A stretch of DNA of 64,000 bases from Amoebophrya sp. A120 (Eukaryota > Protista > Dinoflagellata), in NCBI GenBank assembly GCA_905178155.1, contig CAJINV010000016.1, forward strand, positions 835,386 to 899,385. The letters run 5' to 3'. The position numbers were made by a program, and so were the translations under genes. Each line of letters opens with the position of its first letter. The first letter of the stretch is position 1. Shown here piece by piece: positions 6,264 to 62,700 of the stretch. Below the pieces are notes generated by a model that saw only the letters and a list, made by a program, of their open reading frames with translations, had not been told where the DNA came from and did no database searches.

Positions 6264-9200
6264 ATGAAGAGGCGTTCACCAGAAAACTTTTCCAGCTTCC
6301 GGGGCCAGCACCTCTGCGTCTTCTTCCTCCTTTTCCATCAAGCGAGCCCAGTCACCGTCTCGGCTGCAGCGTTCTTGCCTTCCGGGGGTTCCTCCGTGGC
6401 GACAATATCAGCCGGGCCTGTAGTCGCCTCGTACAGCTCTGGAGCCCACACACCCCGGGCGCCGTATCATCTTGCTTCTAGTGCGGTACCAGTGCCAACC
6501 GCCTCGCATGGCGGTTTATTCACATCATCGTCGGCGTCACCGGGTGGTACTACGTCTACAGGTCATGCGCCGCTGATAATACCTGGGACGGTTTTTGGAG
6601 CAGCTGCACCTCCTGTGTTCGCTTCTGCGTCGCAACAACAGTTTCAGCCAGGAGCCCCGTCCGCCTTTCTCCGATCAAACAGCTCCGTGGGGAACACGAG
6701 AAGTTCTTCTAGCAATAGCACCGCTTCCGCAGTCCAGCGCGCACGGAGTCAGCCGCAGCCGGGACAGCTGTTGGGGCGAGCAGGGGCGATGCCGGTAGTA
6801 CAAACTACAGGGTCTTTATCGCAACACCAGCAGCAAGCACAAAGAGCCCCTGCTTCGTGGGCATACCCTGCAAGAGGACCGCAGCATCAACAAACAGTGC
6901 CTGCTGGAGTTTCCGGAGGTCCACAAACAGCAACACCGCTCCCTGGGGGACCACCTGTTGGAGCTGCTGCGCCACAACTACACTCCCACGGCGCCGCTTC
7001 CAGTACCCGCACAGCCACCCCCGCGACCACGCGAACTCACACGCCCGGCGGGTCCATGCACGTGCCGTTGCGTGGAACTTCATCCTCCCTGGCAGCCCCG
7101 GCTGGGTTATCGGTACCGTTTTTCGGTGGTTTTTTTGGTGGTGCTCCTCCGCAAGCATCCGGCCACCAAACTCCCAGCCCGAGTGGAGGAGGTGCTCCTG
7201 TATTATCAAGGAACTTATTGCACAACAACGTTCGTGCCATGACGCCAAACACCAGCCCAGCAGGGTTTGCGCCCATGGGCCTGCAGTCCAGCCAGCCGCT
7301 ACTGACAGCAGGAGCTTCAACTGCAGCTACTACTTCGCCGCTATCGAGTATGCTCTACGGCGCCATACCTGGAACTACAGCAACTGCAAGTGGTTTATCA
7401 CCAGCAAATAAATCTAAAGAGCCTTGCCCCCTCTGCTTCGAGGACCACAACCACCCAAGCGAAGGAAATTTCGTCTGCCGGCACTGCGGCGCCTTCGCGC
7501 ACCGGACGTGCTTAATCCCCTGGATTGTTCCGGGAATTCAGGCGAAGGGCAATTCGGAGCTGCCCCCGGACCGGGGAGACACACCGGCCGGCGAGACGTT
7601 CGTGGGCATGAGTCTCGGCGACGTCCCGGGGAACAACTTCGTCACTTCCAGACATTGCCCGACGTGCGGGGGCGAAATTGGCTTCAACGAGTTTTTGCAC
7701 AGCGTGCGGCCGGGACGGGCGTATCAAATTGGAAAATCCGAAATTTGGTATAGGGAAGAAGAGGAGAAGCTGCAAACCGTGCTGGACCTCGGCGTGGATC
7801 TGCTACATAACACCGAGAAGGCCGCTATCATGGAAGTCTCGCGGATCTCCGCCGCGTTCGCCGCCTGGCGGTCTGCGGTCGATTTTTTCGTGCGCGACTT
7901 GGAGCCGCTACTCGCGGCGGCCGAGGTGATCAGTATGAATGTGGACGAGCTAGCGAAGCAGATGCAGCAGTTTTCACTCCTAGGAACCAGTACATCAAAC
8001 AATAACGCAGCATTTGTTTCATCATCTCCCCGTCGTGCCACCACATCAACCACCCAATCGCTGCTCGACCAGAGCCTCTTGACTTCCGAAAGGGACGCTG
8101 CGCTCTACAAGACAGTAGGCAGAGAGGAGCTGGGCATGGAAACGGACGTCTATGCCAGGTTTGTTACGAAGTGCCGGATATGCATTGCAAAGATGTCTGG
8201 GTCTGGAAGAATGCAACTTGTAAAGGTAATTCTGGCTCATGCAAAAATTCGTGTTGCACGAATGTCAAAAGTTGTCCACTTTTGACGAAGTTGAAAGGAA
8301 GTTTCTCATGCAGGATAGGCATGATAACAATCCCACATAATCTGTCATGCTAGGTCCTGCATTCCACATGACATGGATCATTCAAAATATGCATGACAAG
8401 TCTAGCAAAGCCCCAGACATTTTTGCATTTGATACCGGAAGACGACTCCGTTTTCCGCTTCCGAGAGGATTCAGGACCGGCCGACGGTGAAAGCGTTACT
8501 AGACTGCGGCTTGGTGAAGTTTATGCGGAAGTATTTGCGGCTCGGCGCCGGGGGAGATGAAAGTACAGCGTTTGTAAAAGCGGCACAGGACATGAGCTAC
8601 GGCTCGATGCCAACGACTATCAGCGGCGGATTTTCCAAATCGGAATTGCTCGAGATACACGTGAAACTGGACGAATTGCTTCACGAAGAGTGGTCAAAGC
8701 CTGTGAACACGAGTAGTGGGTCTAGTGGAGGTGCTGGTGCTGGGGCGGGCAATGCGAACGTATACTAATGCTGTTCTAGTAGCTGCTTACTTTCGAAAAT
8801 TTCGATGAACTTGATGTTTTTCCATTTGCACTGCTCGTTTCTTCATGACGAAAAAGTTCGTACGAGTACGAAGTGCTCGAATTCCGCACAAACAAAAAAA
8901 CAGCTTGTCGTCTCGTCCCAGCCTTCCGGCAGCATTAAGCCAACACCTCCGACGGAGCGGGCGAAAGAGCAGCTCGAATCGGGCCTCCAGTACGAACACT
9001 ACATCATGAACAGTTTCAATAAAGCGCTGGAGGAAATTTATGGGTTCTCCGTTCTCGAAGCCCTCGACCCCGACTGCAAGCAGGAGCTGGTGAAGTACCT
9101 GACACAGCGCGCCTTGCCGTTTTTTCCGAAATTCAGGAACAGCGAGCAGTTCGAGCTTCTTGTCTACGAGCACTACTGGCGGGTCGACTGGGCGGCGAAA

Positions 9201-9689
9201 ATTTTGACGCACGACACGCAGTACAAGAACCTTCTGGCAAACGGCCACGTGCCGGTGGGCAGCAGCAGGAACTTTGACCAGAATCAAAAGTTGGACGAAG
9301 TCATGCGGGAAAAGAAAAGCGGGAAAGAGAAAATGGATAGTAGTAGTACTTCTGGCAGAAATACGGATCATGGAACGTCATCAAATACTAGCACAACAGG
9401 AGGCAAGAGCAGCAGTAAAAAGAGTCAGAAACACAGTATAAAGCCGAAGAAACTGCCCGCCCTTTCCGTAACCACCGTCATCAACGCAGGTTCCTTTCTG
9501 GCGCAGGGCGTTTCCGCGCGGCAACTGGTCCAGCCTTTGTTCCCTTCGGCCTACAGTTTTTTCAGTGACAGGTCGGGTCAACACCTGTCAGCTGGGATGA
9601 ATCAACCGAAGATGAGCACCGAGGCGAGCATCAAAAAGACGGTAAAGAAAAAGAAAAAGAAGGGGTTTGTTAGTTACGTGTGCTGCTAG
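6264..9689 (+). CDS. RINGv/C4HC3 zinc-finger protein with low-complexity N-terminus; 3 exons
   Basis: CPLC..CRHC..AHRTCL.PW..CPTC. Introner 8179-8434 joins ORF 6264 to ORF 8487 in frame. GT-AG intron 8760-8903 joins to the ORF ending KKKKKKGFVSYVCC. Confidence 0.75.
8179..8434. mobile_element. Introner, family A
   Basis: TATGCATTGCAAAGATGTCTGGG...CCCAGACATTTTTGCATTTGATA; TSD CCGGA; frame restored on removal. Confidence 0.9.
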
Positions 9690-11285
9690 GACGAGAAATT
9701 GGAGCGCGGTTGTTCTTTCATACAGATGAGACCACTACTTCTTGCTGTCGTGTCGGCGCTGCATTTTACTTCTCGATAGGAGAAAGACGGCCTCCTGTCG
9801 AAGATCGTTTTTGCACATTGATCATGTTGAGTGGATTCGTACTTTTGATGACTTTGCTAAATTGATACAAACAAAATTTGGTTCTTCGACTTGTTCGAAA
9901 CTGCATATGCAAGTGTCACAAGAATGAATCTTCCGGCTCTTGCAAACTGTTTCGCCACATCAAGAAATGCGATCGATCGCTTCGGCTTTTTCTTCGGCCA
10001 ACTTTGATGGACAGCTCAGTACTACTGTAAAGAATATAGAAATTATACCTGCAAAACGCACAGTTGCCTGTTTCTAAGCTACTGAAGCTGGGAATACTAG
10101 ATCACACTACAAAACGAGTTCTCGCCACAACCACCAACCTTTCATCAACAGGAAATTTCGAATACAGAGAAAATACCTTTCGCACCATGATGCCGAAGAA
10201 AATTTCGTATACCATGACAATAGAAAAATACAAATGCATATGCAATAAACAAGCATGCTCGGGAAGTTGGGCAATGAATGCGGATAAATCGCGCGACTAC
10301 AACAACTTACTTGCGCGATTGCAATGACCAATGACAACTCCATGTCCTACGACTTATGTCCAATTTTGACAAAATGCTCCGGAAGAAAGATGATAAAAGA
10401 ACAAGCAAGTACTTTGTTACAATCAAGTACAACATCCACAGCGGTTTAGTAGTATCGTGACTAGGAAGGATTTGTCAACTTGATGCGTGTTGAGCATCGC
10501 CGTAGTAGACATTTCTGCTTCTGCGGTCGCTGCTCTACCACTTGGATGCGTTGTTCCGCATTAATAACGAGTGCTGATTGAAGAGGAGTTACAATAGGTT
10601 CTTTGCGCAGCGTAGAGATTGATATTGAAAGCGATCATTTTCCCGACCGCGTTCTGAATGCACGCACAGCAGCACAGGAAGATCCTGCTTATTGCTTTTG
10701 TCGTGATAAATCGAAAGTTTTTGACCGAAGTACTAGCCAGCAAAAAAAAAAAAAGGAATGGTAGATTAGTACTTGGCGCAACAATCCGTAAAATGAATAG
10801 AACTCTAAGATCAAGATTGCAGTCAGTTATATTAAAGCACCTTAGCGCTACTCTACAATTTCGCAGACCTAGGAGGCTCCGTTTAAAAAATACTCACACG
10901 CTCTTAATGGCTGCCCATCAAAGCTAGATCGATTTCAGATTTTCTATGGCAAAAAACGCCTGAAAATCATTGTCAACAAATTGCAACCAAAAAATCATCA
11001 GGGGAAGAGCGGTTAGTTATAGTTCTGCCGTGGGCTGAAAATCACTTTTCTCATCGAGAAAAGGTGGTTTTCGACCTGTATAGCACTTAGCTAACGTAAT
11101 CACTAGTTCGACGTGGTGGAGTGTTTTTCTTCACTGTTGTATCACACACAAAAAAACTTAATGACTTTACTAGCACGACCAAATCACCTAACATTCGTTG
11201 TCACCTCATAGTTTCACCCGAAAATAAAGAATTCTACCTCTTCGATATCATCAGTCTTTAGAAACCTTTCACATAAAAACACAAA

Positions 11286-12512
11286 ATGGCAAGACTAAAG
11301 AAAGACGACGGCGCAAAGAAGAAGGGGAAGGTGAGATAGAGATGTGGATTTTCTTGGGAAGAGTTCTGCGATATTGTTTATTTGTCATGCAAAAACCAGC
11401 ACAGCTGCACCAAGTGTCTGTGATGTAGGAAATGCAATTTGCAACAATAATGTATCAAAAATTCTAGTACAACTACATCCACTAAAACGAACAGGAGCAA
11501 GTGGGAAAGAAGCATTTTGCTGCGGATAAGGAGACCCCAGCCGCTTCCATCGTCGGTGGGAAAACCCCGGGCCTTAATAACGAAACCCCAGCTATCCTGT
11601 GTAGAAACGTCCCCACCCCAGAGTTGTCATGCAAATGCGCAATGGTAGGAACATCTCTAATGCGCATCTCCATGGAAGGCATTTCCAATCGTGTTTTGAC
11701 ATTTGTAATGCTGTAAACAGGATGAGAGAGTGGCTTTCTCATGCGGCTTTCCTTGCTAGCCAGCACTACGCTGCAGATGAAAACTTGTCATGCAGAACTC
11801 CCAAAACTTAGGAATTTGTGTTGCAGACTTCCCATCTTGACTATGGTGTGGGAACGTTTTTACATGGGATACCAGCGGGCTGCGCTCCGGTGGTTGTTGT
11901 GAAGAAGCGCACGACCAAGCCAGGCCAGGCGGCGATCCGGGAAATCAAGAAGTACTTATAGATACGTTTTGTGGATCTGGATCGATTGTTTTTGCATGTT
12001 TCCTTGCATGAGAAATCAATGTTGAATTCACTCACTGCGCATGACAAATTTTTAACAACATTTGTGGTGCGAGGGCATTGCAAAGTATGCAACACAAGAA
12101 CTTTTTACCAGGTACCAGAAATCTACTGAGCTGCTGCTCCGAAAGCTGCCGTTCCAGCGATTAGTTCGTGAGGTGCTCCAGGGCGATACTCGCGCGCAAG
12201 AGTTCCGCTTCCAGTCGCAGGCACTGTTGGCCTTGCAAGAAGCTGCGGAAGCCCACTTAGTTGGCTTGTTCGAGGACACGAACTTGTATAATTGCATAGA
12301 GCTGATTTATTTTGATGCCTTTGTTTCTGAACAGATCCATTTATTGCCTGACAAATTCAAATTTTCCGTTTGAAGTAATTTCTCATGCACAAATCACGCA
12401 CAAAAATCACAGGTGCGCCCTGCATGCCCGTCGCGTGACGATTATGAAGAAGGATTTGCAATTGGCTGTCCGCATTCGCGGCGAGCGCCGGGACCCGGGG
12501 AACGGTTACTAA
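11286..12512 (+). CDS. H3: Histone H3 variant (CENH3 candidate), 5 exons
   Basis: MARLKK... tail, then [31 protein letters not shown]...[55 protein letters not shown] introns 11331-11494, 11952-12111, 12286-12412; introner 11593-11871. Confidence 0.9.
11593..11871. mobile_element. Introner, family C
   Basis: TATCCTGTGTAGAAACGTCCCCAC...GTGGGAACGTTTTTACATGGGATA; TSD CCAGC; homologous to 24528 and 61658. Confidence 0.9.
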
Positions 12513-12527
12513 GCAAACAGTAACTGT

Positions 12528-13516
12528 TATCGAAGAAAAAAAGTGTTACTGTTACACATTGCAAGAAAAAAACCGAATATTTTCATCCGTTCAGTAAGAA
12601 TTTTTTTGGCACGCAGGTCGGCGAAAACTTCGTTTCTGATGAATGACGCAGACATGACGAAGGCAGCCAGCCATCGGCCCCCTCAGTTACGTCCTACACT
12701 AGCTAGCTGAGGGCGCGCCTATTTTGGCGCTTCGCTCCCAATGGCTCGCCCGGAATGCGGTTCGCTGGCCTTGTGTTTCCTGGCCCCATCCCGTGACAAC
12801 ATGAAGCAGAGAATACAGATGGAAGGGGACTCGGTCACAAGAGTGGCAAACCGCCTCCGGGTGAACATTGGCAGGGTTTTGGTAACCCTGTAGCACGAGT
12901 GTTTCGCTATCAAGCATGCGCGGCTTGACTTGTAGGGGAGATATTTTCTCAGACACCCACGGAAGAGCCTGCGCCCGCAGGATCCCTGAAATTCAATCAC
13001 GGACGTGGGGGCAGCTTCTTTTACGTGGTGTGCAAACTTGACGCAAAGCCTCTAGCTGAAGGCTCGCGCTTTCGCGTGTTTGCTTTCAGTCGAGGTGTTA
13101 CACACTTGGAAAAAAAAACGGCAATCTCTTGCGCAAAATCGCCCACATTTTGACCCTCCCTTGAGGGCTGGCCAATGTTACACATTTTGGTGTGTAACAC
13201 AGCAGTTTTTTTGCGAACCCCCATGGCACTCTGCGATTTACTGTGTTACACATTTCAAACAGTATCAAGATTCCGCTCGGGGAGAAAAGTCTAGAAGTTG
13301 GATGTCGCCCGGTGAAAAAAGTGTTACATATCGAAAAAAAAGTGATACAGTTGCTATTTTTTCTGGCCTTGCTTTGACCCCTCAAAAAAATGCAGTGTGT
13401 ATCACTTTTTTTTGCAATCCGGGTGGAAAGTTGGCTTTCGGGACAGGGCGCCGATTTCGCCAGGAAAGGGCAAATTACGTAGAGCCATCATGGCCACGAT
13501 GGGAAGGAAAAGGCTG
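12528..13516. mobile_element. About 1-kb insertion flanked by a 56-bp direct repeat of the H3 3' end
   Basis: 12472-12527 is identical to 13517-13572. The insert begins TATCGAAGAAAAAAAGTGTTAC and carries several TGTTACA(C) motifs. Confidence 0.5.
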
Positions 13517-13524
13517 GCATTCGC

Positions 13525-16500
13525 GGCGAGCGCCGGGACCCGGGGAACGGTTACTAAGCAAACAGTAACTGTGAATATGTCAACATCTTCGAAAGTGTTG
13601 ACTTCCACTGCATCGCAGAAGTGGGACGAGCAATAGACGGTCTATAACGAGAGGGTAAGACTAAGAATAGACTTCTAGAAAATGATTTTGCAAATTGCAT
13701 CGATTGCAAGATAACTTGATCAACATAGGACCTCCTTTTATCGTTGTAGACAGGGCGTAGCTAGCACATGTGCCGGAGATCGGATCAATGGCATGTGCGT
13801 TGGCATGAACCTAGAGAAGCGAATAGAAGACACTTCTGCTGCAGTTTCCTATGAAAGATCTTTGAATTAACACCGGATCATGTATCCATCAGGCAAAAAA
13901 CCATCTTCATACACAGCAGCTGCACAACATCAAACTAAATTGTAAAGAATACTATTGGCGCGACGTCAGGAGTAGAATTCGAAATTGAGATCAACATCAA
14001 CGAGCTGATTTTTGCGAACACTAGCTAGATTTTGATAAGATGATCTTGATCACAGAAAACAACAAGCCGCGGCTCCTTTCATCTTTATTTTGCGAGAAAA
14101 GATGAGGAACCACTACTGCTCTCGAAGATACTAAGACTGGTCAAAGTATTTCTGCTCAACACCGCTGTACATGAGGATGGCTTTTGTCAAAAAAAGATTG
14201 ATCATAATTTTCCCTTTCATTTCTATGAACTACTGTCAATTATCTGGTAGCTCCGTATAGAAGGCCTATGTATGTATTTCTATTTCGAGAAGGTGTGCTC
14301 GCTCCGGGAAGTAGTTCTTGACATCTTCCTCTGGCCGTTTCGGATTGTACTCCGATGTACTTCTGTCGTGACCCCTGCGCTGTAAATTCTTTGGATATTA
14401 TGACTGCTCTCACGTGAGCCGATCGGGACCGACCAATTACTTCTCTTGAGCAGTATACTATACGTTCTAGCTGCTGAGGCTGATAGATTTACAAGATGGA
14501 AACAGGACTACTTCCGGTATTTTTATACTGACGGCATGGAATCGATGGAAGGAAAAAATAAGAATGAAGAAGGATTTCTAGAGTGACGTCCATGCTAATG
14601 CGCAGGAAGCAGTGTCTTTTTTGTTCTCTTAGAACTACCTACTTGCTGAGGAGGTAGAAATTGTTTCACGAGAAGAAAATGCGTACTAGTCACTGGTCTA
14701 AAAAAAAAAACAAATCTGAGACGATCTTCGAAGTAACAGGGTCTTGGCAAATGCAGGTAACATATCGCACATAATTCCAGATGAATTTGGCTTTTGGATA
14801 ATAACTTGTTTGCTCGGAATTCCAATTCCAATTCGTTTCACTCATCAAGAAGGATCAGCGTTCTGGAAAATGTAGCGAACTTTTTTTGCAGAAATTAAGA
14901 TGAATCGGAGGATCGTGCCGAAAATGTGACTTTGGTATCTCTAGGGGACGGTGGGTGCGTCGACTGGTACAAATCTCTAGCAAGGCCGCGGATGCAAGGA
15001 AACAACGGAAAACTCCGAGAGCAATTTATTCGTTTTCACACCCACGAATTTTCCTGCAGCGACCCCTCTTTTTCCAACAACATGAGAAATACCATGATAG
15101 AGTTTCATCCTTCATGTTGTTGTTTCCAACTTGATTTCGCGAATTATACCGAATTAGTCGGCAATATTGTATCGTAGTGCACGTGAGTGGCGAGCGCCGG
15201 GACCCGGGGAACGGTTACTAAGCAAGTAGTAACTGTGAAATTGTCAACATCGAAAGTGTTGACTTCTACTGCACCGCAGAAGTGGGACGAGCAATAGACG
15301 GTTTATAACGACTAATAGAGATGACCCCCTCGTCGAGGGGGTAAGAACAATGGACTTCTAGAAAATGATTTTGCATATTGCATCGATTGCAAGATTATAA
15401 CTTGATCAACATAGCACCTTCTTTTATCGTTGTAGACAGGCCGCAGCTAGTACATGTGCCGAAGATCCGATCAATGGCATGTGTGTTGGCACGAACCTAG
15501 AGAAAGAGAAGACACTTCTGCTGCAGTTTTTTATGAAAGATCTTTGAATTAACACCGGATCATGTATCCATCAGGCAAAAAACCATCTTCATACACAGCA
15601 GCTGCACAACATCAAACTAAATTGTAAAGAATACTATTGGCGCGACGTCAGGAGTAGAATTCGAAATTGAGATCAACATCAACGAGCTGATTTTTGCGAA
15701 CACTAGCTAGATTTTGATAGGATGATCTTGTTCACACAAAACAAAAACCCGTGGCTCCTTTCATCTTTATTTTGCGAGAAAAGATGAGGAACCACTACTG
15801 CTCTCGAAGATATTAAGACCGGTCAAGGTATTTATGCTCAACATCGCTGTACATGAGGATGGCTTTTGCCCAAAAAAAGATTGATCATAATTTTCCCTTT
15901 CATTTCTATGTGAAGTTCTGTCAATTATCTGGTAGCTCCGTATAGAAGGCCTATGTATGTACTTATTTCTATTTCGAGAAGGTGTGCTCGCTCCGGGAAG
16001 TAGTTCTTGACATCTTCCTCTGGCCGTTTCGGATTGTACTCCGATGTACTCCTGTCGTGACCCCTGCGCTGTAAATTCTTTGGAAATTATTATAACTGCT
16101 TTCACATGAGGATGAGCCGATCGGGACCGACCAATTACTTCTTCTCTTGAGCAGTATACTATACGTTCTAGCTGAGGCTGATAGATTTACAAGATGGAAA
16201 GAGGACTATTTCCGGTATTTTTATACTGACGGCATGGAATCGATGGAAGGAAAAAATGAAAAAGAATTTCTAGGGTGACGCGCATTGTAATGCGCAGGAA
16301 GCACTGCCTTTTTTGTTCTCTTAACACTACCTACTTGTTCAGGAGGTGGAAATTGTTTCACGAAGAGAAAATGCGTACTAGTCACTGGTCTAAAAAAAAC
16401 AAATCAGAGACGATCTTCGAAGTAGCAGGGTCTTGGCAAGAGCAGGCAACAAATCGCACATAATTCCGGATGAATTTACCAATTTGGCTTTTGGATTTAT

Positions 16501-16872
16501 AACTTTCCTCGGAATTCCAATTTCAATTCGTTTCATTCATCAAGGATCAGCGCTCTGGAAAATGTAGCGAGCTTTTTCTGCAGAAATTAAGATGAACCAG
16601 AGGATGAAATTATGAATGACTTTGGTATTTTTAGGGGGTGGTGGGTACGTCGACTGGTATTAATCTTTAGCAAGGCCGCGGATGCAAGGAAAAGGAAAAC
16701 TCCGAGAGGAATTTATTCGTTTTCACACCCACAAATTTTCCTGCAGCGACCCCTCTTTTTCCAACAACATGAAAAATATCCTGATAGAGTTTCATCCTTC
16801 ATGTTGTTGTTTCCAACTTGATTTCGCGCCGAATTATACCGAATCATTGGCAATATTGTGTCGTAGTGTCAC
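13525..16872. repeat. About 1.66-kb tandem duplication (13525-15182 and 15189-16872) of the H3 3' end plus the H3-CDC5 intergenic region
   Basis: Colinear, highly similar copies with scattered substitutions and indels; both start GGCGAGCGCCGGGACCCGGGGAACGGTTACTAAG. Confidence 0.92.
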
Positions 16873-16974
16873 ACTTGTTCCATAGCGACAGTGAAGTTCG
16901 ACAGTGAAGTTTGAAAGCTATCCTTTCCGACAGTTTTCATCAGCTTTTACTCCTTTTGTGCGAGTATTTTGTAA

Positions 16975-20318
<3,344 letters not shown>

Positions 20319-21802
20319 ATGGAGGTGACAGATTGCTGCGTTGCTAGTACATCTATGTGAAGCAGTACTAGGCAGCACTCTCTCGAGGACCGCGACCGAA
20401 TTCAGCGACTCTGACTCAAAGTTTGTTATATCCGTCATATCGACACTTTAGTATCATGTCGACAAGTTTTGCCAAGCAAGTCGATGAATGGAAGTGAATC
20501 GAGCAAAGGAACACTCAGCTACGCCAACGATCTTCTTGTCACGAAGTAGCGGTGGCATTATATGTTTGCGTGTTCGCGAGGAGAGGTTTGAATGTTCCTC
20601 ATGGTTAATTGCACCACGCAGCTGTTGTGTAACTGTATGTAGTACGTATCGAGAGAGACTGAAAAGAACGCTAAGGACACCGAAGACGTAGTTCAGTGTC
20701 GGCAGAATTTTCAGAAAGTTCAGGCGTTCTTCCAGGCTGCTCTGGCCGGCGCGTCAGTGACCCAGGTTGCAAGTTCGTGGACGTGTTTCTTACATTTGAA
20801 TTGGGAAAATGTATTTGTGGCACAGGACCTCAAGCTTTGATATCTACCAATGGCGTTCATTGGGTCGAATTCTGTTACGATATCATTATCATTATCAAGA
20901 AGAGTAAGCGTTTCCTATCTTGACTGTGAATGCCTACTGTCCCAGAGATAGAATAAAGACCGACCCGCTGTGACTTTGTGCTGCCGCGCATACCAATTTG
21001 TGGAGCACAAGACGATCAATCAAGAACAGCAGCAGCTCTTTCGCTGCAGCAACACACCCTTCCTCGTCTCCTCGGGACTACGGATCTCAGTACCGGCACG
21101 CGACGACAGGTGCAGTGCGTATTACGACCCCACGGAACGATCCCACTGCAAACTTGGTGAGTAATAACAGTCGACCTACTATCACTATCCGCGTGTGCCT
21201 GCTACCTTGTAGTACGCCGGTTCGCCACCTCTCGTCGCAGTGACGTCTTCATCAGATACACAGGTAAAAATCTGCAGGTTTGCGCACTTCATCTACAACT
21301 ACAGCGGTAGCAGTTGCCCGATCACTCGCACCATATTTTCCTTAGGACGCGACGGCGACACAGACGTCGCCCGGGCGCTCTTGGCACGCCGCGCTTGTGC
21401 AGAGACCGGACGAAGAAGCCTCTCTCCCCTTTCGCCGCCACTCGAACACAGACCTGACACCGGGAGCAAGATACAACAGCTGACGGTCGCACCGTATTAA
21501 CGAGGGGACAAGACGACCCTAACCTGGCAGCAAGGCTAGATCTTCCTTCCCTGATACAACTCAAGCAACAGCGGCGCACTGTGAGAGTACACCGGAGCAG
21601 TAGTGCCGACAGAACAACAAGAGGAGGCACTTAGAAGAAACCGGCGATATTTAGCAAAACGTAAAGACAGTCGGGAGCAGTACGTTCTTCGGCCCCAGTT
21701 CAAAAGCGGCTTTCTTACTGGCCGAAGGCTCGCGTTCGATCTGTGTTTTCCGCGCTTTGGCCGTCCCTTTTCCAAATCGCAGGCGGAAATACCGGTCACA
21801 AA

Positions 21803-22767
21803 ATGGGCGCGAAACCCTCAAAAACCTTGATGGACACCATCATCGAGGTAAAATTGACGAAAAAACGACTCGAAGCAGCGCAGAGGAAGGCAGAAAAACA
21901 GCACGGCATGGAGAAGCAAAAGGTACTTTTAGTAGTGATGAATGAGTTTGAGTGATCAGAATTCCAGGTACTCGCAGAGAAAGATTCAGAAAGCGGAATT
22001 GCTTTCGCATTGGCATGTTAGTTTCTGATGTCGCAGAGCTGGAGTTTGTCTACCTCCGAGGTTCAGGGAATGGTTCCAGAACTTGTTCATCTTTCTAATT
22101 CCCCAGGTCCTGAAAGCCATCGAGCAGGGAAACCTCGAGGGCGCACGTGTTTACGCAGAAAACGCAATACGGAAGAAATCCGAAGCGCTGCAGATGCTCC
22201 GACTCGCGGCTAGAATGGACGCTGTAGCGTCGAAACTAGACACAGCAGAGAAAACACAGGCGATGTCGCAGAACATATCGGACACAATACCCCAGTTAGA
22301 CGACGCGCTGACAAAGATGACACCGGAAGCAATCGCGACGAACATGGACCAATTTGAGAAGATTTTCGACGACCGTACTTGTTTGATGTCTGGATCATGT
22401 TTTGGTTCGATTTTCGGGTTGTGCGTTCGTGATGTGAAAATTTAGAGAAAGAGGTAAGGGAATGAAAAAAGGGCTACGACATGTCTCACATAAACAAATC
22501 ACAGTGGACGTGCGCATGAACTACATCACGACGGCGGTTGACAGCACCACCGCTTCGGCAACACCAACAAACGAAGTCGACCTACTCATCCAGCAGGTCG
22601 GTGAGGAGCACGCCATGGATGTTTCCAACCTCCTAAATCAGGACGGACTGAAAGACCCCCTGACGGCGGCGATCTTGAATCCGGCCGCCGGGCTTCCGGG
22701 CAAGGACGCGTCGAAAGATTCGGTTGGGGAGGATTTGGAAAGCCGGCTCGCGGCGTTGCGGTCGTGA
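21803..22767 (+). CDS. CHMP1: ESCRT-III subunit CHMP1/Did2 (Snf7 family), 3 exons
   Basis: KAIEQGNLEGARVYAENAIRKKSEALQMLRLAARMDAVASKL and C-terminal MIM1 DLESRLAALRS. GT-AG introns 21923-22106 and 22375-22504. Confidence 0.92.
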
Positions 22768-23295
22768 TGAGGATAGTATCGCCTTCGCGGTACGGTGACC
22801 CGCGATTTTGGATGCGTCCCGCGTGCAAGTAGGTAAAGCACGCCATACAGGAGTCGCAGCTCTGCTTCGTTTTCGTTCTGGAAAAAAGAGACTCAGAAAA
22901 ATGAAAGACTTTTTCGAACAACCGCAATGACAACCTACATCTAAAGATCCGGCAGGTGTCCATCAGAAGATGGAAAGTTGAAATGTACGATCGTTTGTAA
23001 GTTCGGAGGAGTATTGCGTTTTGACATCCCTCTTCCGGTTTCGAAATTTAGTTTGAGGTTTTTCTTTTGTTCCAGAGCCGGTGCCGGTTCTCAGATCTAA
23101 AGATTCTAAAAGATCTCGCTCCACTTTCTACGGGCGCCTGCTCGCTTTTCGTGTCTTTTCGATTACAGATGATCCGAAAGACAAAGATCCATGCCTACGT
23201 ATCGTGACCCTGAAAGCATTTTTAACATCGAACGCCAATCTATAAATTTTAGCAAGCTCGGTGTTCTAGTTCTACAGGTGTTTTGTTTCAAAAAA

Positions 23296-24822
23296 ATGCG
23301 TCGCTTCCACCTCTTGTCCCTTGCCCTGCTCGTGCCGGTCACCGCTAAACTGAAGCTGAAGAAGAATGTTGTTCCCATTACCACGGGTAAGGTCTACCCG
23401 GACGCCATGGCAGCGTGCTGTGCCTGCTTTAAGGTGAAGTACTCGTTTCCAGAAAACGGCGGGTTCGCGCCGACCTTCGCCTTGAAGCACACCTGCAACA
23501 CGTGCTATGTCGCCGACCGGTATGGGACCGATGCGAAGGAGGAAGAGACCTTTGACGTCCCAGCGGGGCACGCGAAAACCGAGGAGGGTTACGAACAGAC
23601 CAAGGCGTATGGAAGTGTCAGGATCGAAATCGTCAAAGTTGAAAAAAATTGTAATGCATAAAATGCGACCGAAAAAGTGGCTGGATTGCAGAGGACGCAA
23701 GGGGGCCAGATTATAGTCCTGCTAAGGGTCAGGAGTTGGGCTGCTGACTAGCATGACAGAGAGGAGCTTCTTTGCCCTAAAACGCATGACAGGTTCAGTT
23801 CCAGGACAGGGCAAATTTGTCATGCGCCGACTACAGACTGTGGGTCTAACTGGCATCGATTTTACGCATCACAAATTTTTCGACTTTTTCGATTTCGATC
23901 CTGACACTCCTATAAGGCGGAAGTGAAGGCCATCCACGAGTGGAACTGGAACTGCGCCGAGGGCAAGGCTCCGGAGGATGAGGCGCAGTTCGCCGCTGGT
24001 ATAGTTTGTTCTTTCGGGATTGTTTGCCTGCACAGGCTGTCATATGGAGTTAAAAATTCGCCTGAAGGAATGGAGTGTGCGCGTGATGGGTGCCTAAAGT
24101 GGATGCGTACTTGGGTATAATCTTAATTTCTAAATTCTTGCCTTTCTTGTATCAGGTCCGGTCCCCGGGGAGCCGTCTGCCCGGTCGAGCTTCTTGATGT
24201 GCAAGGAGGATTATGCATTGCAAATATGTCTCGGTCTGCAAATATGGAACTTGTAATGCTAGTCCTACACTCCTGTAAAATCTGTATTGCATGACGATTA
24301 GCAAGAGGATGCCCCTTTTTGTAAAATACAAAAGGCCTGTCTCTCATGCGGACTGCGCATGAGGAAGTGCTCTGCAAACTTGTCATGCTTGGCTGCATTG
24401 GGAAGTATTTCAGTCTCGCCAATTCAGCATGACATGCTTTCAGACCCAGACGTATTTGCATTTGATAAGGACCCGGGCTGGTACTGCGCCATGGAGGGTG
24501 GACCGGACATGAAGAAGCCGGCGGGTGTATCCTGAGTAAAAACGTCCCCACAACAGAGTTGTCATGCAATTCTGCATGCCAAAAAAGTTTCTCATGCGGA
24601 GCCCTATGAGAAGCATTTTCTATTCGTGTTTTAGAATTTGTGATGCTAGAATCAGTATGGTAGGCTAGATCTGTAATGCTTCTGAACTAGCTAAACAGGA
24701 TTACACTACGAGGACAAAGTTGTCATGCGAAACAACCAAAGTTGGCCGATTTGTCTAGCAGATTTCCCATGTTGACTCTGGTATGGGGAAGCTTTTACTC
24801 AGGATAGGGTGTAGGATCTTGA
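23296..24822 (+). CDS. Small cysteine-rich secreted protein of unknown function, 5 exons
   Basis: Signal peptide MRRFHLLSLALLVPVTA. Frame is continuous after removing introners 23608-23914, 24212-24467, 24528-24806 and GT-AG intron 23999-24155; ends KKPAGVGS*. Confidence 0.8.
23608..23914. mobile_element. Introner, singleton family
   Basis: TATGGAAGTGTCAGGATCGAAATCG / CGATTTCGATCCTGACACTCCTATA; TSD AGGCG. Confidence 0.9.
24212..24467. mobile_element. Introner, family A
   Basis: TATGCATTGCAAATATGTCTCGGTCTG / CAGACCCAGACGTATTTGCATTTGATA; TSD AGGAT/AGGAC. Confidence 0.88.
24528..24806. mobile_element. Introner, family C
   Basis: TATCCTGAGTAAAAACGTCCCCA / TGGGGAAGCTTTTACTCAGGATA; TSD GGGTG. 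Confidence 0.9.
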
Positions 24823-25403
24823 AGAAATCCCTTGATCCTGCTTCATCATTTGCAGGCCATCCGCTGCAAAACGAAAAGGTTCACAGGTGCAGCCTCTGCA
24901 ACACAAATACTTTCATTCATAGTACTCATTTGAACCCCTGTATTTCTGATAATTGTGCAGCTCCATTCGGAGCTTGTCATGCGAAAGCTTCGATAAAAGA
25001 ATGCTGATTTTCCTTAGCATTTTGCACCAGAGATGAGCGGGTGGGATTTGTTCCCTTTCATATTCGGATGGTGAGGTGGAGAAGCTGGATGAGGACACCG
25101 GGTCGGACACCTTGGTCGAGACCATGAGCATGCCGGAGATTGGCGCCGAGTAGAGTAGTTCAGACAACATCAACTTTTCGAATTCTCTTTCTGCAAGTCT
25201 TACTGTAAAAAATGCACCTGTACTCAAGGAAAACTAAAAAGGTAAAGGCAGAAGAACAAAGTATACTTCTGCGGTCCATCTGCCTAGACGCGCTGTCAAT
25301 AAAACTCAACTCTCCTACTTTTTTTTTGTCGCACTATCAATTGCGCTTGTCTACTTTAGGTGATCTCCTGTTTCCCGTGCAAAGATGTTTTTTATTGTAC
25401 CAG

Positions 25404-25540
25404 TTACCAGCGAATTTGAAAGTAAAGTTCATCTCATAATACGTTTCAAACTTTTACCAGCGATTTTTCTTTATGTAAATTTACCAGCGATTTTTCTTTT
25501 TACGTTTACCAGCGATAGCATTTCAAACTTTTACCAGCGA
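25404..25540. repeat. Five copies of TTACCAGCGA in an intergenic region
   Basis: Copies start at 25404, 25454, 25481, 25506 and 25531. Confidence 0.8.
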
Positions 25541-26000: not shown

Positions 26001-26060
26001 ATGAGGTCGAGCCTGCGCTTTTTTTTCCCTAACCACACCGATGCGCAGGCTCGACCTCAT
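26001..26060. repeat. Perfect 18-bp inverted repeat (hairpin)
   Basis: ATGAGGTCGAGCCTGCGC - 24-nt loop - GCGCAGGCTCGACCTCAT. Confidence 0.85.
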
Positions 26061-46078: not shown

Positions 46079-47479
46079 ATGGGTGCCCAAGCCTCCTCCG
46101 TGCGAGCAATGGGCCGACAAACAGGATCTTTGCTCCCCGAGGGCATCTGCATCCCGGGGCGGGACACGGCGATTCCCCAGGCGCCGCCCAAGACCGCGAA
46201 GCACTTCATCAAGGGCACGCCACTGTACGGCCCCTTCGAGAGCAAATACGAGCAGGCGCTGATCGGCATGGGCTGTTTCTGGTGCGTGGAGAACCTCTTC
46301 ATGAAGCGGGACGGCGTCTTTTCCACGCAAGTCGGTTACGCCTGCGGGACGACGAGGAATCCAACTTACGAAGAGGTTTGCTCAGGTATGACCAACCACA
46401 GCGAGGTGTGCCGGATTGTCTACGACCCGAATGTGCTCACGTTTCAGGACATTTTAAAGACGTTTTGGACCATATCATGGGGAAAATCTTCTTTTATTCA
46501 CCTGGCTGCTGTTTGCGCGATTGTCAAAATTTGAATTTGGACGGTATCATGCTTCTATTGCAGTACGCACTTTTGTAGCTGTAGCATGATTGTCTTTTCG
46601 CAGGATTTTTGTATACTCACGCACCACTGAGTAATGCGCTTGTTGCTCGTAATTGTAATTGCAAGTTGAGTTTGAGCTTGACTTGAGCCATAGCCCGGTG
46701 ACGTAGATTTTCCACAGGATATACCAAGCATGATCCAACGACGCTAAATCAGCAGGGAGGAGATCGGGGGACGCAATACAGGTACAATTGGACATCATTC
46801 GTTATGCTTATGCGGGGAAAGCAGGAAGTGCAAGTGCCTGAGTCACTACCAACTTCAAATGAACTTTTCTATGTGACGAGAATCATGCGCCAGTGCTTTT
46901 CATCAATTGTTAAGACACAGAAAGATTTCTGTGCGTTTTTAATGGTCCTAGAAGTAGAAATAGAATCAAAAAAAAAAAACGACGTTGAAAATAACCAATT
47001 CACTCCCCGAAGAACACTCAGGTCCGGGATCTACTACTACAATGAGCAGCAGAAAAAGATCGCGGAGGAAACGAAGGACAAGATGCAAAAGGCCATCGAC
47101 GAGGCCTACGGTGCCGGCGCGAAGAAGATCTCCACGGAAATCCTTCCCGCACCGACCGACTTCTTATCCAGGAAAAAAACTATGTAAGTGTAACTTTGTA
47201 GGAAAAGCAGCATCACAAATTCGTTTTGCATAAAAGAAAAACCTGTCATGCGCAGCTAGTACGTGAAAACACGTATGAAAGTGGCCTATGACGCACATCC
47301 AGCATGACAATCCTATATAGTTTTGCATTTTCTGCATCACAGATTTACACTCACATAGTTTTTTTCTTGGATACTTCTGGATGGCAGAAGATTACCACCA
47401 GCAGTACGACGCGAAGCCGGGCTCGCGCGAGTACTGCGGTTTACGACCCCTGTTCAAGGTCAGTAACGCAGCACTTTGA
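46079..47479 (+). CDS. msrA: Peptide methionine sulfoxide reductase A, 4 exons
   Basis: [62 protein letters not shown]. Introners 46473-46721 and 47165-47373; GT-AG intron 46782-47021. Confidence 0.95.
46473..46721. mobile_element. Introner, singleton family
   Basis: TATCATGGGGAAAATCT / AGATTTTCCACAGGATA; TSD GACCA/TACCA. Confidence 0.85.
47165..47373. mobile_element. Introner, family D
   Basis: TATCCAGGAAAAAAACTATGT / ACATAGTTTTTTTCTTGGATA; TSD CTTCT. Confidence 0.9.
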
Positions 47480-51450: not shown

Positions 51451-52110
51451 TTTTATCAGCATGTCTGGCCCTACCAGCAAGTTTGAGTTTCTCGTCTTTC
51501 TACGACTTTAATTTTTGTTTCTCACCTCGCACAGCACACTGTAAGATGAAGACGATTTATTTATGTCGGGTAAGAACCCTGCTAATGTCATCGTTTCGCC
51601 ACGGACAGAGTTTTTATCGTTATGGAATCACTTGCAGGGCGAACTGGCACAAAATAAACGAAGCCGATTGATGCGGTAATGAATAAGTAGCTGCTCGTTC
51701 TTCTGGTAGACGGCCGCATGTTTGTCATGGTCCTGGACTCTGTACTCAGCAAACTTGTTGTAATATAAATCAGAACACCGACGCGACACTAATATGCGCG
51801 AGTTTTTTACTTCGTTAATCGCTGTTCCGTGCGTATTTGTTCACGACTAGCTTCCGTGCAGGGACACGCTGTTCAGCTAATTGTGAAAACTGGATCATGT
51901 TTTCTTTCTTGTATAAAGCAGAAGATTTTCAGAGATCAGACTTTCGTTTTCCTTTTGCCGTATGAGATGATCATGTATGGGTTTTTTTTACAACAACTCC
52001 TTCTAGTTCGAGCCATCGGCCCTGCTACATGTTGATGCTTTTGTTTTTACATCACATCGACATGAACGAAATGCGCTGAGGAAATGAAAGTATCTGCCAA
52101 AGAATAACCC

Positions 52111-54613
52111 ATGCAGCAGCTCCAAATGCTGCCCAAGCCCGAACCCTCCCTCCGTAGAAGAAAGAGGATGTGTAGTTGGGCGGATTCTACTCCTGCAATC
52201 AGAGCTGATCGTCCTGCTGAAATAAATCGTTCATGTGAGGATTTGGATTGTCGCAATAAACGAAAAATTAACTCGAAGCAAGGAAGCGACCGTAAACAGC
52301 AGCACCCCTCTTTTGCACGAGACCATAATTCTTGCAGCGCGGCTGAAATATTGATTCCTGCCGAGGAAATAACGACTAGCAGTGGCATGACAAGCGACGG
52401 GGCCAGTGGCTGCCCGCCATACGACCCTTCAGGGTCGTCTACTTCGGCCTCAAGCCGTGTAGTTCCAGCAACGGCGAGCCGGCCCAAGAGGGGAACTTCT
52501 AGTAAGCGAAGTGGTGATTTTTATGCCAGGAACAAGAGACAGCGGCGAGCAGCACGCGATGCGCAACTGCAGGCAGAAAACGATCTTGATGCATTAGGGC
52601 AAAAAGTTTCGCAGCTGCTGGCGCAACTATGCGCAACATGTCGGGACCTCAGCCGAAAGACCACCCGCACGCTCGGGCGATGGCATCAACATCATTTTGC
52701 CGACCGCACGACAGAAAGAAACACGTCGATAGCTTGTTGCGCCAGAAGGAACAGGAGCTGTATAATTTTGAAAAACCAGCAGGCGCAGGCCCGCCCCGCC
52801 AAGAATTTCTACGCCGGAAAAAGCAAGAGCTTTCCCAGACACAAAGTTTTCGGGAGTATCTGTGTCACCCTGGCATCCACATCTTTGCTGCTGAAAGCCG
52901 CTTGGGTGCTTCATTCCCTTCTTCTACACGGCACGTTTCCAAGGGTGGTCCTGGCGCAACAAGAATCGCAGATGCAACAAGGGAACTCCGCCGGCGCGAG
53001 CAATGCTCCCTTGGGCAACATGAATCTGCTCCAAAATTCCCCCTGCCAGCAGGTCGCGCGTTGCAAATTCGAGCAGGAACTGTTGCCGCAACTGCAAACG
53101 GTGGATAAGCAGCTGTTCGAGGAGCAAAACGTGCAGCCCGCTCTGGAAACGCTCCTCCTCCTGGCCGAGAAATTTTTCAAGGAACCGGGCGACGCCCTGG
53201 ACTGCCGTTCCGGCGGGGCGCTGGTGTTTTACCGGCTCGCCGAGATCTACCGACACAGCGTGAACGCCCCGCAACGGGCCCACAACCTGTACCAACTCGC
53301 GATGAGCATGTTCTGGGACATGAGCCGCGAGCCCAACGGCCTGGAGTGTCTGGAAACGGGGCAGGTGTGGAGTTTGGATTTTAACGCCTTCATGGAGGCG
53401 TACTTGACTTTGGCCAAACAAGTGCACCGACACGAACCGGAGGGCTTACCCCCTGCGTTTGCGTACGACAAGAATAAGAGCAAAAAGCGGAGGATCGCGA
53501 TAACGTCGGTTTGTGCGTACGCAGAATCGCACATGCTGTACGAATTGTATCCGCTGGTGAAGCAAAACAGGGACCGATACGCAAAACTGAACGGGTATGA
53601 TTATGTTGTAGCTTTACGCTAGTACTTCAAACTTGAGTTGTCGCAGCAACGGGAATAGACACGGATGCAGCTCCGACGTTGGTAGCTTGATTTTGACAGC
53701 GTAGTCTATTTCTAGGCCTCAATAATCACAAGGACAAGTGTTTAGCATTACTTGTTCCTAAGTACTTAGAACCCATATGTTCCATCTCTACTATCCCAGG
53801 TACGACTCCCACCTCTGGAACACAACCTTTGACGCAAGCCGCGCCCCCGTTTGGTCCGCAGTCGGCCTGCCCCTCTCGCTTGTCCAGAAAAAAACCGACT
53901 ACGATTGGATTTTGGCCGCCGACTGCGACATGATGTTCATCAACATGGACGTGAAAATCGAGCAGATCCTCGACGAGTATGTGAACGAGGAGCAAGACCC
54001 GGACGCAAAAAACGTTCACGTGTTAATTACCGAGGACGGGCGGGGACTTGCAGGTGGGATCTTCCTCATCCGGAATTCGCCCGAGGGGAGGGCGATCATC
54101 GAGTCGGTGTACGGGAGTCATCTGCCCGTGCCGAATGTCTACGACCGGCATGATTTACGGGACCAGTGGTCGTTTCTGTGGCATTTTATCCGGCCGAAGG
54201 CGACGGAGGCGATGAAACCCATGGAGCTGGTTGTCGGTATATTGATATGTTGCTGCGTTTTCATTTAGATGTTCAGCATGACAGGAAGCACAGTAAATTG
54301 ACAGTTGTGCAACACAAATTGTCGGTCGTCATCAACGTGTAAACCTACACGTAACTCAGGCTCCGGCACGCGGGATTGGCGCATGCTGGAATATCGGGAC
54401 CAGGTTCGCCTCATCCCCCAGAAGTATCTCAATGCCTACCCTTGGGCCAGCTGTCGGCCCAGCCACCATTGTTTTGACGATGATAAGGACCTGGTGGTCA
54501 GCTTCATCACGCTGGGTTCGTTTTCGAAGGAAATGGCGTACGCCATGTTGAACAAATTCTTGGAGCAGAGTTTGCAAAGTTACGAGAAAATTACGGGGAG
54601 CCGGGAGTTGTGA
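52111..54613 (+). CDS. Glycosyltransferase family 34 (GMA12/MNN10-like), 3 exons; start uncertain
   Basis: NRDRYAKLNGYD..RAPVWS, YDWILAADCDMMFIN (DxD), GLAGGIFLIRNS, DQW, LNAYP. GT-AG introns 53595-53799 and 54237-54359. Confidence 0.85.
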
Positions 54614-59700: not shown

Positions 59701-62700
59701 CCCAGACATTTTTACATTTGATAAACCGGGAGTCGGCGCAGATTTCCGACAACGTGTATTTCCCCTACGAGAACACGGAGAACGTCATGGCTTTACCCGA
59801 TGGAACCACCGTCATCCATAACGAGAACGCCGTCGTGACCCAGACCACCGCAAATGTGGATGCCGGAGTCATCCAAATGCGGTTTTCCCGGTATTTGGAA
59901 GATCCAGATTTTTTGGAAAGGGAACTGGATCGATTCGAAAAGCAATTTCCGGCGTGGATGAGTGCGGAGCAGTTAGTTGCGGAAGGGTATGTGCAGAAGA
60001 AGGACAAGTACAAAATTCTGGTCGCGCGGAGACAGCGAAATTTGCTGTTTGACAAAGCCTATGAACTGCAAAAGTATCGCACTCGTATAAATGCATTACA
60101 AATCTCCTCAGCATGAGAAATAAAATTTGTAATGCGTTTTGACCTTAACAACAGGATTTGTAGTGCATGATTGCAATACGAGTGCGATACTTTTGCACAG
60201 GATAAAGCCGAACACGCCTACGCGTTAGCGGATATTCTGCCATTGGGAATCGAGGAACGGACGGACAAGATTCCGTATTGGATTTTTTTCTGCTTTTTTA
60301 GCCCTCCTTGCTGGGCTTTTATTTTCGCATGGGACTTGCTTTGTGTTAGTGTTTGTCGCCTGTGCATAACAGAATGACAGGTTGTGTGGTCTGTGTCTGT
60401 CTAATCCAGCATAAAGAAAGTTTTGTGGTTTAAGTACTTACTCACGTTATCCAGAGTCTTCAACTTAAAAAGAAACCGAACCTATCAGCCTTCTCTCTTG
60501 GTCCGGCCTCGGCGAGTGGTTTTTCGACAAATTTGTGCCTACCGACGGCGACCGAAACCAGCGGATGGGTGGCTCCTTAGACCACATCGCGCTTCGCAAA
60601 CCGAACGAATTACGCCAGTGGTTCAACAAGCGACGGGATGAGGGCACGGCTTTGCACAAACTCGCCGAGGTTTACTACAATTTGCTAAATGACCAGAAGT
60701 GGCAGAACCACATTGAATTTCTCTCCAACAAGAATCCGGAGTGGTCTTTGGGGTTTTTGATTTTTGCGAAGGAATTTGTGAAGAACATCTGGCAAGCCGA
60801 GCCTTTCGCGACGGAGTTGCGCATGTACTACCGGCCATTGCTGATTTCCGGCACGACAGACATGCTGTTTCAAAGGACCAACCCTCGCACCGGCGAACTG
60901 GAATTCATCATGTGCGACTGGAAGCGGATGGCGGTCTATGGATTGCAAATGTGTCTGGGTCTGGAAAGTTCTTGGAACTTGTATTGCTGCTCTTACATTC
61001 CTGTGAAATCTCTATTGCATGACCAACAAAAGTCGCAGCCTCTCTCGTCATACAAAAACGCAGCTTTTCATGCGGACTGCGTATGAGAAAGCGTTCTCCA
61101 TCAAACTTGTCATGCTTTCCCGCATAAGGAAGGGTTCTCTTGATGCGCATTTTAGCATCAGAAATTTCTAGACCCAGACATTTTTGCATTTGATACGGTC
61201 CTGGACAACCGACAGTATTCCCCGACGGAACAAGATTTGTCGCAGGAGCAGCTAGAGCTCGCGGAGGATCACGAGTTCGACCGGATTTCTGCGAAATTTC
61301 TCGAATCCGCCCCTGACTACGTGAAGAACAAGCGCAACAGCCGGCTGTTTTACCGGTTGGAATTGGTGAAGAAGGCCTTTCAACAGCCCTGGATGATGAA
61401 TCGCACGTTTAAATACTCTCTGCAGCTACGGAATGCAGAAGTACTGTACTTGTAGTAATCTTCGCGATCCCTCATCACAAATGTGCTTTTTTAATGCCTG
61501 ACCGTGCATGGCAAATCCAAATGTTACCTTTGCTTCTGAAAAAATTTGTGATGCAATTACTACAAGCGCGGTACTTTTGCCATGCATAACCGCTATTGTT
61601 CTACAAGTGGATGGCGGAATTGGTGTACGATATCGAGATCAAGTACACGTGGATCGTTATCCTGCATAAAAACGTCCCCACCTCCCCGGAGTTGTCATGC
61701 AACTGTGCAATGACAGGAACATCTGTAATGCGCAGCTCCATGAGAGGTATCGTATTTCCAGATCCAGTCGTGTTTTGGAATTTGTAATGCTGTAAACAGG
61801 ATGACAAGATGGCTTTTTCGTGTAGCTTCCGTTGCCAACTAGCACTACACTGCATGAGGCAAGCTTGTCATGCGCAACTCCCAAAACTTGGAGATTTGTC
61901 TAGCAGATTTCCCGACATCGTGAGTATTGGGATGTGGGGACGTTTTTACAAATGATAATCGTTCTGATCAATCCGGTGGAAAAACTCTCCGAGAAAATTA
62001 TGACTTGCTCAAACGTTACAATCTCAAACGTTACAATAGAATCTGGAATTTGTGTTGCATGATTAGCATGACAGACTCGCACAGCGTCCCACCTTTTGCA
62101 ACACAAATTTCGCCACATTCTAGTGAAGATTGAGACTCCGGATCTTATCATGCGCAGTCCTATGAGAGTTGGCTAGATCATGCACTTCTTGCATCACAGA
62201 CTTCCGGATTCTATTGCAACGCTTGAGATTGTAGCACCTGAGCAGGTTATAAAAATGATCTTCCTCGACCGGAGAATCGGGGTCGAAGTGTACCCGGTGG
62301 ACGGGTGGACCGACCATTTACATGCGTATGCAGTGCAAAAGTATCGTACTCGTACTAATTGCAGTTTATGCATTACAAATCTAGTTCTTAAACGTAAATC
62401 CGCATTACAAATTCAAGTCTGTAAGTAATGCTGAGCCAATTTGTATTGCGATTTATACTAGTACGATACAACTTTTGTACAGGATAATGCGCGACTGCAA
62501 GCGATCATCCAAACCCGGCACGAGAGTCTGCTCGCAGCAGGTTACAACTGGGGGAACGTGGTGAAGGATGTTGAGCCACTGTACCCAACCGTGAGTTCCC
62601 TGGACGAGTTGCAGACGGAGAAGTTACCCGCTTTGCCGGTCAGGAAGTCGAAGCCGGTGTATTGGCAACATCTTCAGGCAATGATGTTAGGTGGGACCAC

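Follow-up and report, generated by a model that had tools for sequence, protein, structure and literature searches.

The closest described relatives of the introns considered here are the introner elements of Amoebophrya sp. A120, where more than 60% of introns are non-canonical, 1954 introner families are listed, and neither U1 small nuclear RNA (snRNA) nor the spliceosomal protein snRNP27 was detected, in this strain or in strain A25 (snRNP27 is entered as 'ND' in Table S6) (PMC7789003). How so many non-GT-AG introns are removed with no detectable U1 is a question left by that genome paper. A further introner table has 58 rows for A120 (PMC12130899). In yeasts, a uridine at donor position +4 accompanies the loss of SNRNP27K or METTL16, since it can pair with the U6 adenosine when this is unmethylated (PMC10581693), and reduced N6-methyladenosine (m6A) in U6 has been reported for Fritillaria, a lineage rich in transposon introns (PMC13326754). 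We analyzed 64,000 nucleotides of A120 (contig CAJINV010000016.1, positions 835,386 to 899,385; hereafter the window, numbered from its first base) and compared its GT-AG introns with its introners. The GT-AG introns are strongly biased to GTAY donors and share an nTAY register with the introners. The more surprising result is a paired internal motif, newly found here, that occurs in both classes and suggests that a subset of the canonical introns may be domesticated introners. We give a probability of about 0.5 to the joint reading, in which the shared nTAY reflects host preference and the motif marks an introner-derived subset.

The comparison set consisted of 15 GT-AG introns, 14 listed in an earlier sequence-only reading of the window and one, 34354-34561, added here. 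Splice joints were taken from contigs of run X4, presumed to be RNA, which skip introns exactly and cover 6000-25500; nine of the 15 joints listed there are GT-AG. Raw-read runs X7-X9 (1, 10, and 377 reads, almost all of them partial) yielded no joints. The CDC5 protein spliced from the window is exactly P0004, and its exon 2 is 100% identical to the A120 protein and 95% identical to the A25 ortholog. With a GT donor, a YAG acceptor, and removal from transcripts at nine joints, the canonical set fits the U2 type. The introns, all on the plus strand, are as follows:

8760-8903, plus strand: GT-AG intron, donor GTAT, no internal motif; acceptor from an X4 contig piece that begins at 8904, directly after the CAG that would close the intron, donor from the open frame
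11331-11494, plus strand: GT-AG intron of a histone H3 variant, donor GTGAG, one motif copy; X4 joint
11952-12111, plus strand: GT-AG intron of the H3 variant, donor GTAC, three motif sites; X4 joint
12286-12412, plus strand: GT-AG intron of the H3 variant, donor GTAT, two motif sites on opposite strands; X4 joint
17175-17341, plus strand: GT-AG intron of CDC5, donor GTAT, three motif sites; X4 joint, in the gene whose spliced product is P0004
18940-19105, plus strand: GT-AG intron of CDC5, donor GTAC, one motif site; X4 joint
19660-19852, plus strand: GT-AG intron of CDC5, donor GTAC, motif pair on the minus strand; X4 joint
21923-22106, plus strand: GT-AG intron of CHMP1, donor GTAC, no motif; X4 joint
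22375-22504, plus strand: GT-AG intron of CHMP1, donor GTAC, no motif, position likely common to P0145; X4 joint
23999-24155, plus strand: GT-AG intron, donor GTAT, no motif; X4 joint
34354-34561, plus strand: added, inferred GT-AG intron, donor GTAT, no motif; open frame only
46782-47021, plus strand: inferred GT-AG intron of MsrA (Pfam PMSR), donor GTAC, no site by position weight matrix (PWM); open frame only, GTQYR/SGIYY
53595-53799, plus strand: inferred GT-AG intron of a GT34 glycosyltransferase, donor GTAT, no motif; open frame only
54237-54359, plus strand: inferred GT-AG intron, donor GTAT, motif pair; open frame only
60275-60488, plus strand: inferred GT-AG intron, donor GTAT, no PWM site, local likeness to introner 50877; open frame only

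Thirteen of the 14 donors had been described as GTAT or GTAC, with GTGAG at 11331, and they read so at all 14 coordinates. GTAY opens 14 of the 15 introns in the full set and eight of the nine transcript-supported ones. Since the window background for AY following GT is only 0.119, this bias is far beyond chance (p = 1e-11 for 13 of 14, p = 3e-7 for eight of nine joints). Position +4 is T in eight introns, C in six, and A in one. All 15 acceptors are CAG in an A-rich, G-poor region, and inspection by eye found no fixed branch motif in these introns. T at -6 (9/15, nominal p = 0.009) and A or C at -5 (14/15, nominal p = 0.006) are post hoc observations. The hexamer CTGGAT, on either strand, is present in introns 11952, 18940, 19660, 22375, and 60275, at a density of 2.3 per kb in canonical introns, 1.4 per kb in introners, and 0.09 per kb in intergenic DNA.

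The introners used for comparison, and the three skips that limit their splice register, are:

1779-62486, plus strand: span of 26 comparison introners (TAY...ATA ends, 5-bp target-site duplication, TSD)
Introner starts 1-13: 1779, 2403, 2663, 8179, 11593, 17726, 23608, 24212, 24528, 31163, 31695, 43818, 44251
Introner starts 14-26: 46473, 47165, 49305, 50877, 58354, 58686, 59472, 60060, 60937, 61427, 61658, 61999, 62327
17726-17925, plus strand: introner in CDC5, imperfect TSD; register limited to -2..0
24212-24467, plus strand: introner, TSD 4/5; register limited to -5..-1
24527-25066, plus strand: 540-nt skip, made up of young introner 24528-24806 and an older decayed element ending ATA+4; register -1..0

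Twenty-three of the 26 came from the 33 rows of a scan that demanded TA at both ends, and three (17726, 43818, 49305) were found by eye; the ten rows left out were two nested duplicates and eight weak TSD-3 rows. Terminal TA is partly by construction because of that demand; an unconstrained inverted-repeat scan recovered most of the same introners. The elements start with TAT (23) or TAC (3), all 26 end in ATA, and a perfect 5-bp TSD flanks 18. The three TAC-starting introners also end in ATA, and GTA closes none. Introners 62327-62486 and 2663-3195 are oriented oppositely to their family members, and yet their coding strand reads TAT...ATA. Reading frames contain all 26 introners, and the roughly 24 kb of intergenic sequence contains none (p = 3e-7).

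Joints were seen in X4 for introners 11593, 17726, 23608, 24212, and 24528. Three of these can slide only within limits (17723/17929, -2..0; 24206/24468, -5..-1; 24526/25067, -1..0) and have only -1 in common, which sets the register at -1 on the assumption of a single register for all introners. Introners are thus spliced one base outside the element, with donor N+TAY and acceptor ATA+4, and the earlier proposal that G+TAT or G+TAC is the introner 5' end in the -1 register holds. In this register none of the 26 is GT-AG, ten have G at +1, and two have a terminal AG. The nine commonest non-canonical end pairs given for A120 in Table S4 of the genome paper all have T at +2 (PMC7789003).

The 540-nt skip rests on one contig with 29 letters on its short side. 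It joins the young introner's donor to the ATA+4 end of the adjoining older element, whose own 5' end is TAGG; either an introner's two ends can act unpaired, or removal proceeds in steps. A common introner end, TTTGATA (for example 59717-59723), contains TTGAT, whose A lies 7 nt upstream of the -1 acceptor. We take this TTGAT to be branch-point-like, and a fixed distance from it could set the non-AG acceptors.

The acceptor side of the comparison did not hold in the same way. Several canonical ends had been described as TA-NCAG and equated with ATA+4. TA occupies -6 and -5 in four of 14 (nominal p = 0.012, post hoc), and these four read TTA, CTA, GTA, and CTA; ATA is present at -7..-5 in none of the 15 canonical introns compared to 26 of 26 introners. 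Lengths do overlap in range, as had been said, but the medians differ (166 nt for canonical introns, 261 nt for introners, p = 3e-4).

That a single spliceosome recognizes nTAY in canonical introns and introners alike, a possibility raised in the sequence-only reading, fits both the GTAY donors and the N+TAY register. GTAY is probably a preference of the host spliceosome rather than a sign of introner ancestry: the host machinery would read nUAY, and TAY-ended transposons would happen to fit. Because TAY ends are a transposon trait, known from IS3EU, an accidental match between transposon end and host donor would suffice to start an invasion. A pyrimidine at +4 would be favored if the U6 ACAGA adenosine pairs directly with +4 in a spliceosome lacking snRNP27, perhaps also lacking U1. 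The non-detection of snRNP27 is consistent with this, since its loss accompanies +4U in yeasts, and the link, drawn by analogy, would be a partial fit. Rfam gave no match of any kind in the window, snRNAs included, and no paper on an Amoebophrya METTL16 was found in the literature searched.

Other facts pull the opposite way. The strong +5G/+6U pairing to U6 ACAGA is not seen (+5G in 2/15, +6U in 7/15), six of the 14 GTAY donors carry +4C, which does not pair with A, and snRNP27 recorded as not detected may reflect divergence. The sample is 15 canonical introns from a single window, five of them without transcript support. Intron positions in relatives were deduced from read-through open reading frames (ORFs), of which 22 were examined for position 17175, along with 150 H3 hits. 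At the motif-less 22375, P0145 (63% identical) breaks at the same codon and phase, and its implied donor is GTAGR or GTCGN, not GTAY. An ESM Atlas search with P0145 returned Snf7 only.

This last case also speaks for the reverse order of events, that introner invasion moved the spliceosome to nUAY and old donors were then remodeled to GTAY, as do the large non-canonical share in A120 (PMC7789003) and the spliceosome change that came with the Fritillaria invasion, along with reduced U6 m6A (PMC13326754). We regard this order as rather unlikely, given that snRNP27 is undetected in A25 as well, whose introners begin TTA (TTA-R) (PMC7789003), that read-through in P0170 implies a GTAT donor (one case), and that +4C is far commoner in canonical donors (6/14) than in introners (3/26, p = 0.04).

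The sequence-only reading had favored a different explanation, that most GT-AG introns are old introners which lost their terminal inverted repeats (TIRs) and that GTAY is a fossil of the TAT end. The match of donors at +2 to +4, the motif described below in 7/15 introns, and the excess of T at -6 are in keeping with this. So are the 15% of A120 canonical introns reported with inverted and direct repeats (PMC7789003), the many copies in large introner families that are annotated GT and AG (for example 92 and 79 of 331), and the finding that fungal introners become indistinguishable from regular introns (PMC4457414). Nevertheless, the terminal and structural relics expected from such descent were not found in the 15 canonical introns. 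Residual TIR complementarity, the check that had been suggested, gave an in-register match of 8.1/25, compared to 7.8 for cross pairs and 18.5/25 for introners, and local alignment found no TIR relic (permutation p = 0.28). TSD relics were likewise missing (mean 2.3/5, p = 0.87), as was any stable hairpin (minimum free energy z of -0.3, compared to -7.1 for the 19 introners shorter than 270 nt). The likeness of the two donor classes stops at +4, with +5 to +7 different; +5 is G or C in two of 14 GTAY canonical introns and in 25 of 26 introners (p = 2e-7).

Positions shared between strains point the same way: 49-55% of A120 canonical introns are at positions common to A25, and 98.6% of the A25/A120-shared positions are canonical (PMC7789003). 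A model with GTAY confined to the strain-specific half, assuming ordinary GTAY rates of 0.12-0.3, gives P = 0.0007-0.016 for at least 14 of 15. A TAY wave that predates the A25/A120 split is possible. In addition, the sole non-GTAY intron bears the motif and the eight motif-less introns are all GTAY. Taken together, the fossil explanation is very improbable for most GT-AG introns. What survives of the lost-repeat proposal is its application to a subset, which the motif supports.

Sequence likeness between the classes was sought further. Full-length homology of canonical introns to 25 of the 26 window introners did not survive 15 tests (best p = 0.04), in a test of limited power that two of five true introners fail as well. 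With the motif masked, k-mer likeness was marginal (p = 0.04-0.06). Intron 11952 resembles family A (15/400; in-register window 12/15, controls 2/222) and 60275 resembles introners locally (0/25) and not globally (51/60), each a hint only. A candidate descent of 8760 from family B (0/300 for a hand-picked pair, 1/60) was rejected at 89/400 under a max-statistic null. The TIR pattern had no match in viral contigs and one chance match in a bacterial metagenome-assembled genome, and CDC5 was not found in viral contigs.

The internal motif is what the two classes do have in common. GCATGAC is the top 7-mer of canonical introns and introners alike against intergenic DNA, and the counts for GCATGACA are seven in canonical introns (2.6 kb), 29 in introners (6.6 kb), one in exons (30.5 kb), and zero in intergenic sequence (24 kb). 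Because the motif was first noticed by eye in both classes, it was retested with a matrix built from introners only. This PWM, GCAWBACARAT, found 14 sites in 7/15 canonical introns, compared to 0.43 in length-matched intergenic DNA (maximum 4 in 2000) and 0.86 in shuffles (maximum 5 in 500); matrices trained on a single family (A, B, or C) gave 12-15 canonical sites. Same-strand pairs 30-33 bp apart are present in 18 of 26 introners, across unrelated families with unrelated spacers, and in 4/15 canonical introns. With the 30-33 bp range fixed from introners, four of the five adjacent same-strand spacings in canonical introns measure 32-33 bp and the remaining one 67 (p = 5.5e-5). No pair scoring at least 5 turned up in roughly 54 kb of exonic plus intergenic sequence, and 394 kb from other organisms' loci held one pair. 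Under a strict pattern the window has 15 pairs where 0.01 would be expected; introners hold 12 of them and canonical introns three. The canonical-intron pairs are:

12006-12047, plus strand: motif pair, 33-bp spacing, in intron 11952; PWM and strict pattern
17216-17257, plus strand: motif pair, 33-bp spacing, in intron 17175; PWM and strict pattern
19761-19803, minus strand: motif pair, 32-bp spacing, in intron 19660; PWM only, strict pattern fails
54276-54317, plus strand: motif pair, 33-bp spacing, in intron 54237; PWM and strict pattern

GTAY does not follow the motif, being present in 8/8 motif-less and 6/7 motif-bearing introns; a possible domesticated subset would therefore be marked by the motif and not by the donor. 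The motif-bearing share (47%) is near the published strain-specific share. Insertions landing as GT-AG would later lose their TIRs and keep the motif. That the motif is nearly perfect in introns lacking any other trace implies either that it is under selection or that it arrived recently, and retention would need selection, since arm identity does not exceed background and copies of the motif remain close to perfect.

The motif is used on either strand, and the canonical pairs have no inverted partner with which to form a stem, suggesting recognition as double-stranded DNA. With its repeat every three helical turns, the motif is thus a predicted double-stranded DNA binding site. These same properties would suit a host intron mark, read by a putative DNA-binding protein at any intron age, on which introners converged: either strand is used, the spacing is kept across families with unrelated spacers, left/right orientation varies between introner families, and near-perfect copies occur in introns with no other introner trace. 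A host mark nevertheless seems unlikely, since 8/15 canonical introns lack the motif, at least three of them spliced, the binding protein is putative only, and, of three motif-bearing positions examined, two lack the intron in closer relatives. Intron 17175 is absent in P0007 and P0123. Intron 11952 is absent in P0170, in which the GTAT donor noted above belongs to its own break.

Several results favor older motif-bearing introns, or another cause of the motif, and weigh against the joint reading. P0132/P0133 break at the 17175 codon, an ambiguous case, and among distant canonical H3 ORFs breaks fall at the 11952 site in P0236 and P0291 and at the 12286 site in P0232, which also speaks for a host mark. 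Such breaks would make motif-bearing introns old unless gains were parallel. Parallel gain is plausible because the H3 genes are distant, the query design favors edge breaks, and neighboring positions are occupied too. Motif-bearing introns cluster in two neighboring genes (H3 variant 3/3, CDC5 3/3; p = 0.0014, post hoc), for which a gene-level cause could be responsible, and full-length introner homology appears to be missing from the canonical introns. P0184 was dropped as position evidence, being a truncated isopod H3. A metagenome scan of CDC5 found 79 of 80 loci contiguous at the 17175 site, with patterns and ranking that favor intronless or complementary DNA records; none of 19 tree-placed loci grouped with Amoebophrya, and the scan was not used as evidence.

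The joint reading could be extended at the DNA level: paired GCAWBACARAT might be bound by a host or domesticated-transposase protein that directs a spliceosome lacking U1 to the closest nUAY, an improbable idea as it stands. If it were true, a TAY-ended transposon carrying the site would be an intron at once, and the site would outlast the inverted repeats. The single register N+TAY...ATA+4, the shared donor rule, and a candidate cause in snRNP27 loss make the removal of non-GT-AG introns testable with existing public data, and the paired motif offers a candidate marker for transposon-derived ordinary introns and a bait for an introner-binding protein.

Elsewhere in the window, the H3 variant (11287-12512) is divergent, with a long N-terminus and four introns, and its close relatives P0166, P0168, P0170, and P0172 are 79-88% identical over the core exon. 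Its 3' end recurs three times (12481, 13526, 15190), the last two heading a duplicated block of about 1.7 kb, and a contig joins 12592 to 13650. A single in-frame TAA (35898-35900) separates long open frames 34491-35900 and 35901-36755; the next frame, of 864 codons (36756-39350), had no Pfam match. An intergenic block at 4500-5700 is very GC-rich, with open frames overlapping on both strands. No transposase or autonomous element was recognized in the window, where a cognate IS3EU/hAT5 transposase was not tested for.

Neither the internal motif, the -1 register, nor the snRNP27 link was found described in the literature searched, which covered few subscription papers. The window introners agree with those described for A120 in their TAT-starting inverted repeats, short direct repeats, and non-canonical ends (Farhat et al. 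2021, PMC7789003), and that paper already reports inverted and direct repeats in some canonical introns; no single register, worded GTAY consensus, or internal motif was found stated there, and the logos in its Fig. 3 may show GTAY. TAYGG ends are shared with IS3EU, a superfamily with no tie to splicing, and 5-bp TSDs with hAT5; IS3EU differs in its 6-bp TSD, and TAYGG starts only 5/26 window elements (PMC12730594). The +4 pyrimidine where snRNP27 is not detected recalls the +4U of Saccharomycotina (Parker et al. 2023, PMC10581693), yet those yeasts are intron-poor with strong +5G, whereas A120 is intron-dense, with +5 mostly A or T and +4C common. Fritillaria borealis also removes transposon introns with TIRs and TSDs despite non-GT-AG ends, keeps canonical introns at conserved positions, and shows a drop in U6 m6A that is proposed to change how donors are read; it differs in its AG-AC/AG-AT and YAY ends, a U1 that is present, and duplicated U2AF, and no shared internal DNA motif is described in the accounts consulted (PMC13326754; PMC11282704). 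Domestication of introners as a concept is known from fungal introner-like elements (PMC4457414), which have canonical splice sites from the start, whereas in A120 the sole trace of domestication would be the retained internal motif.

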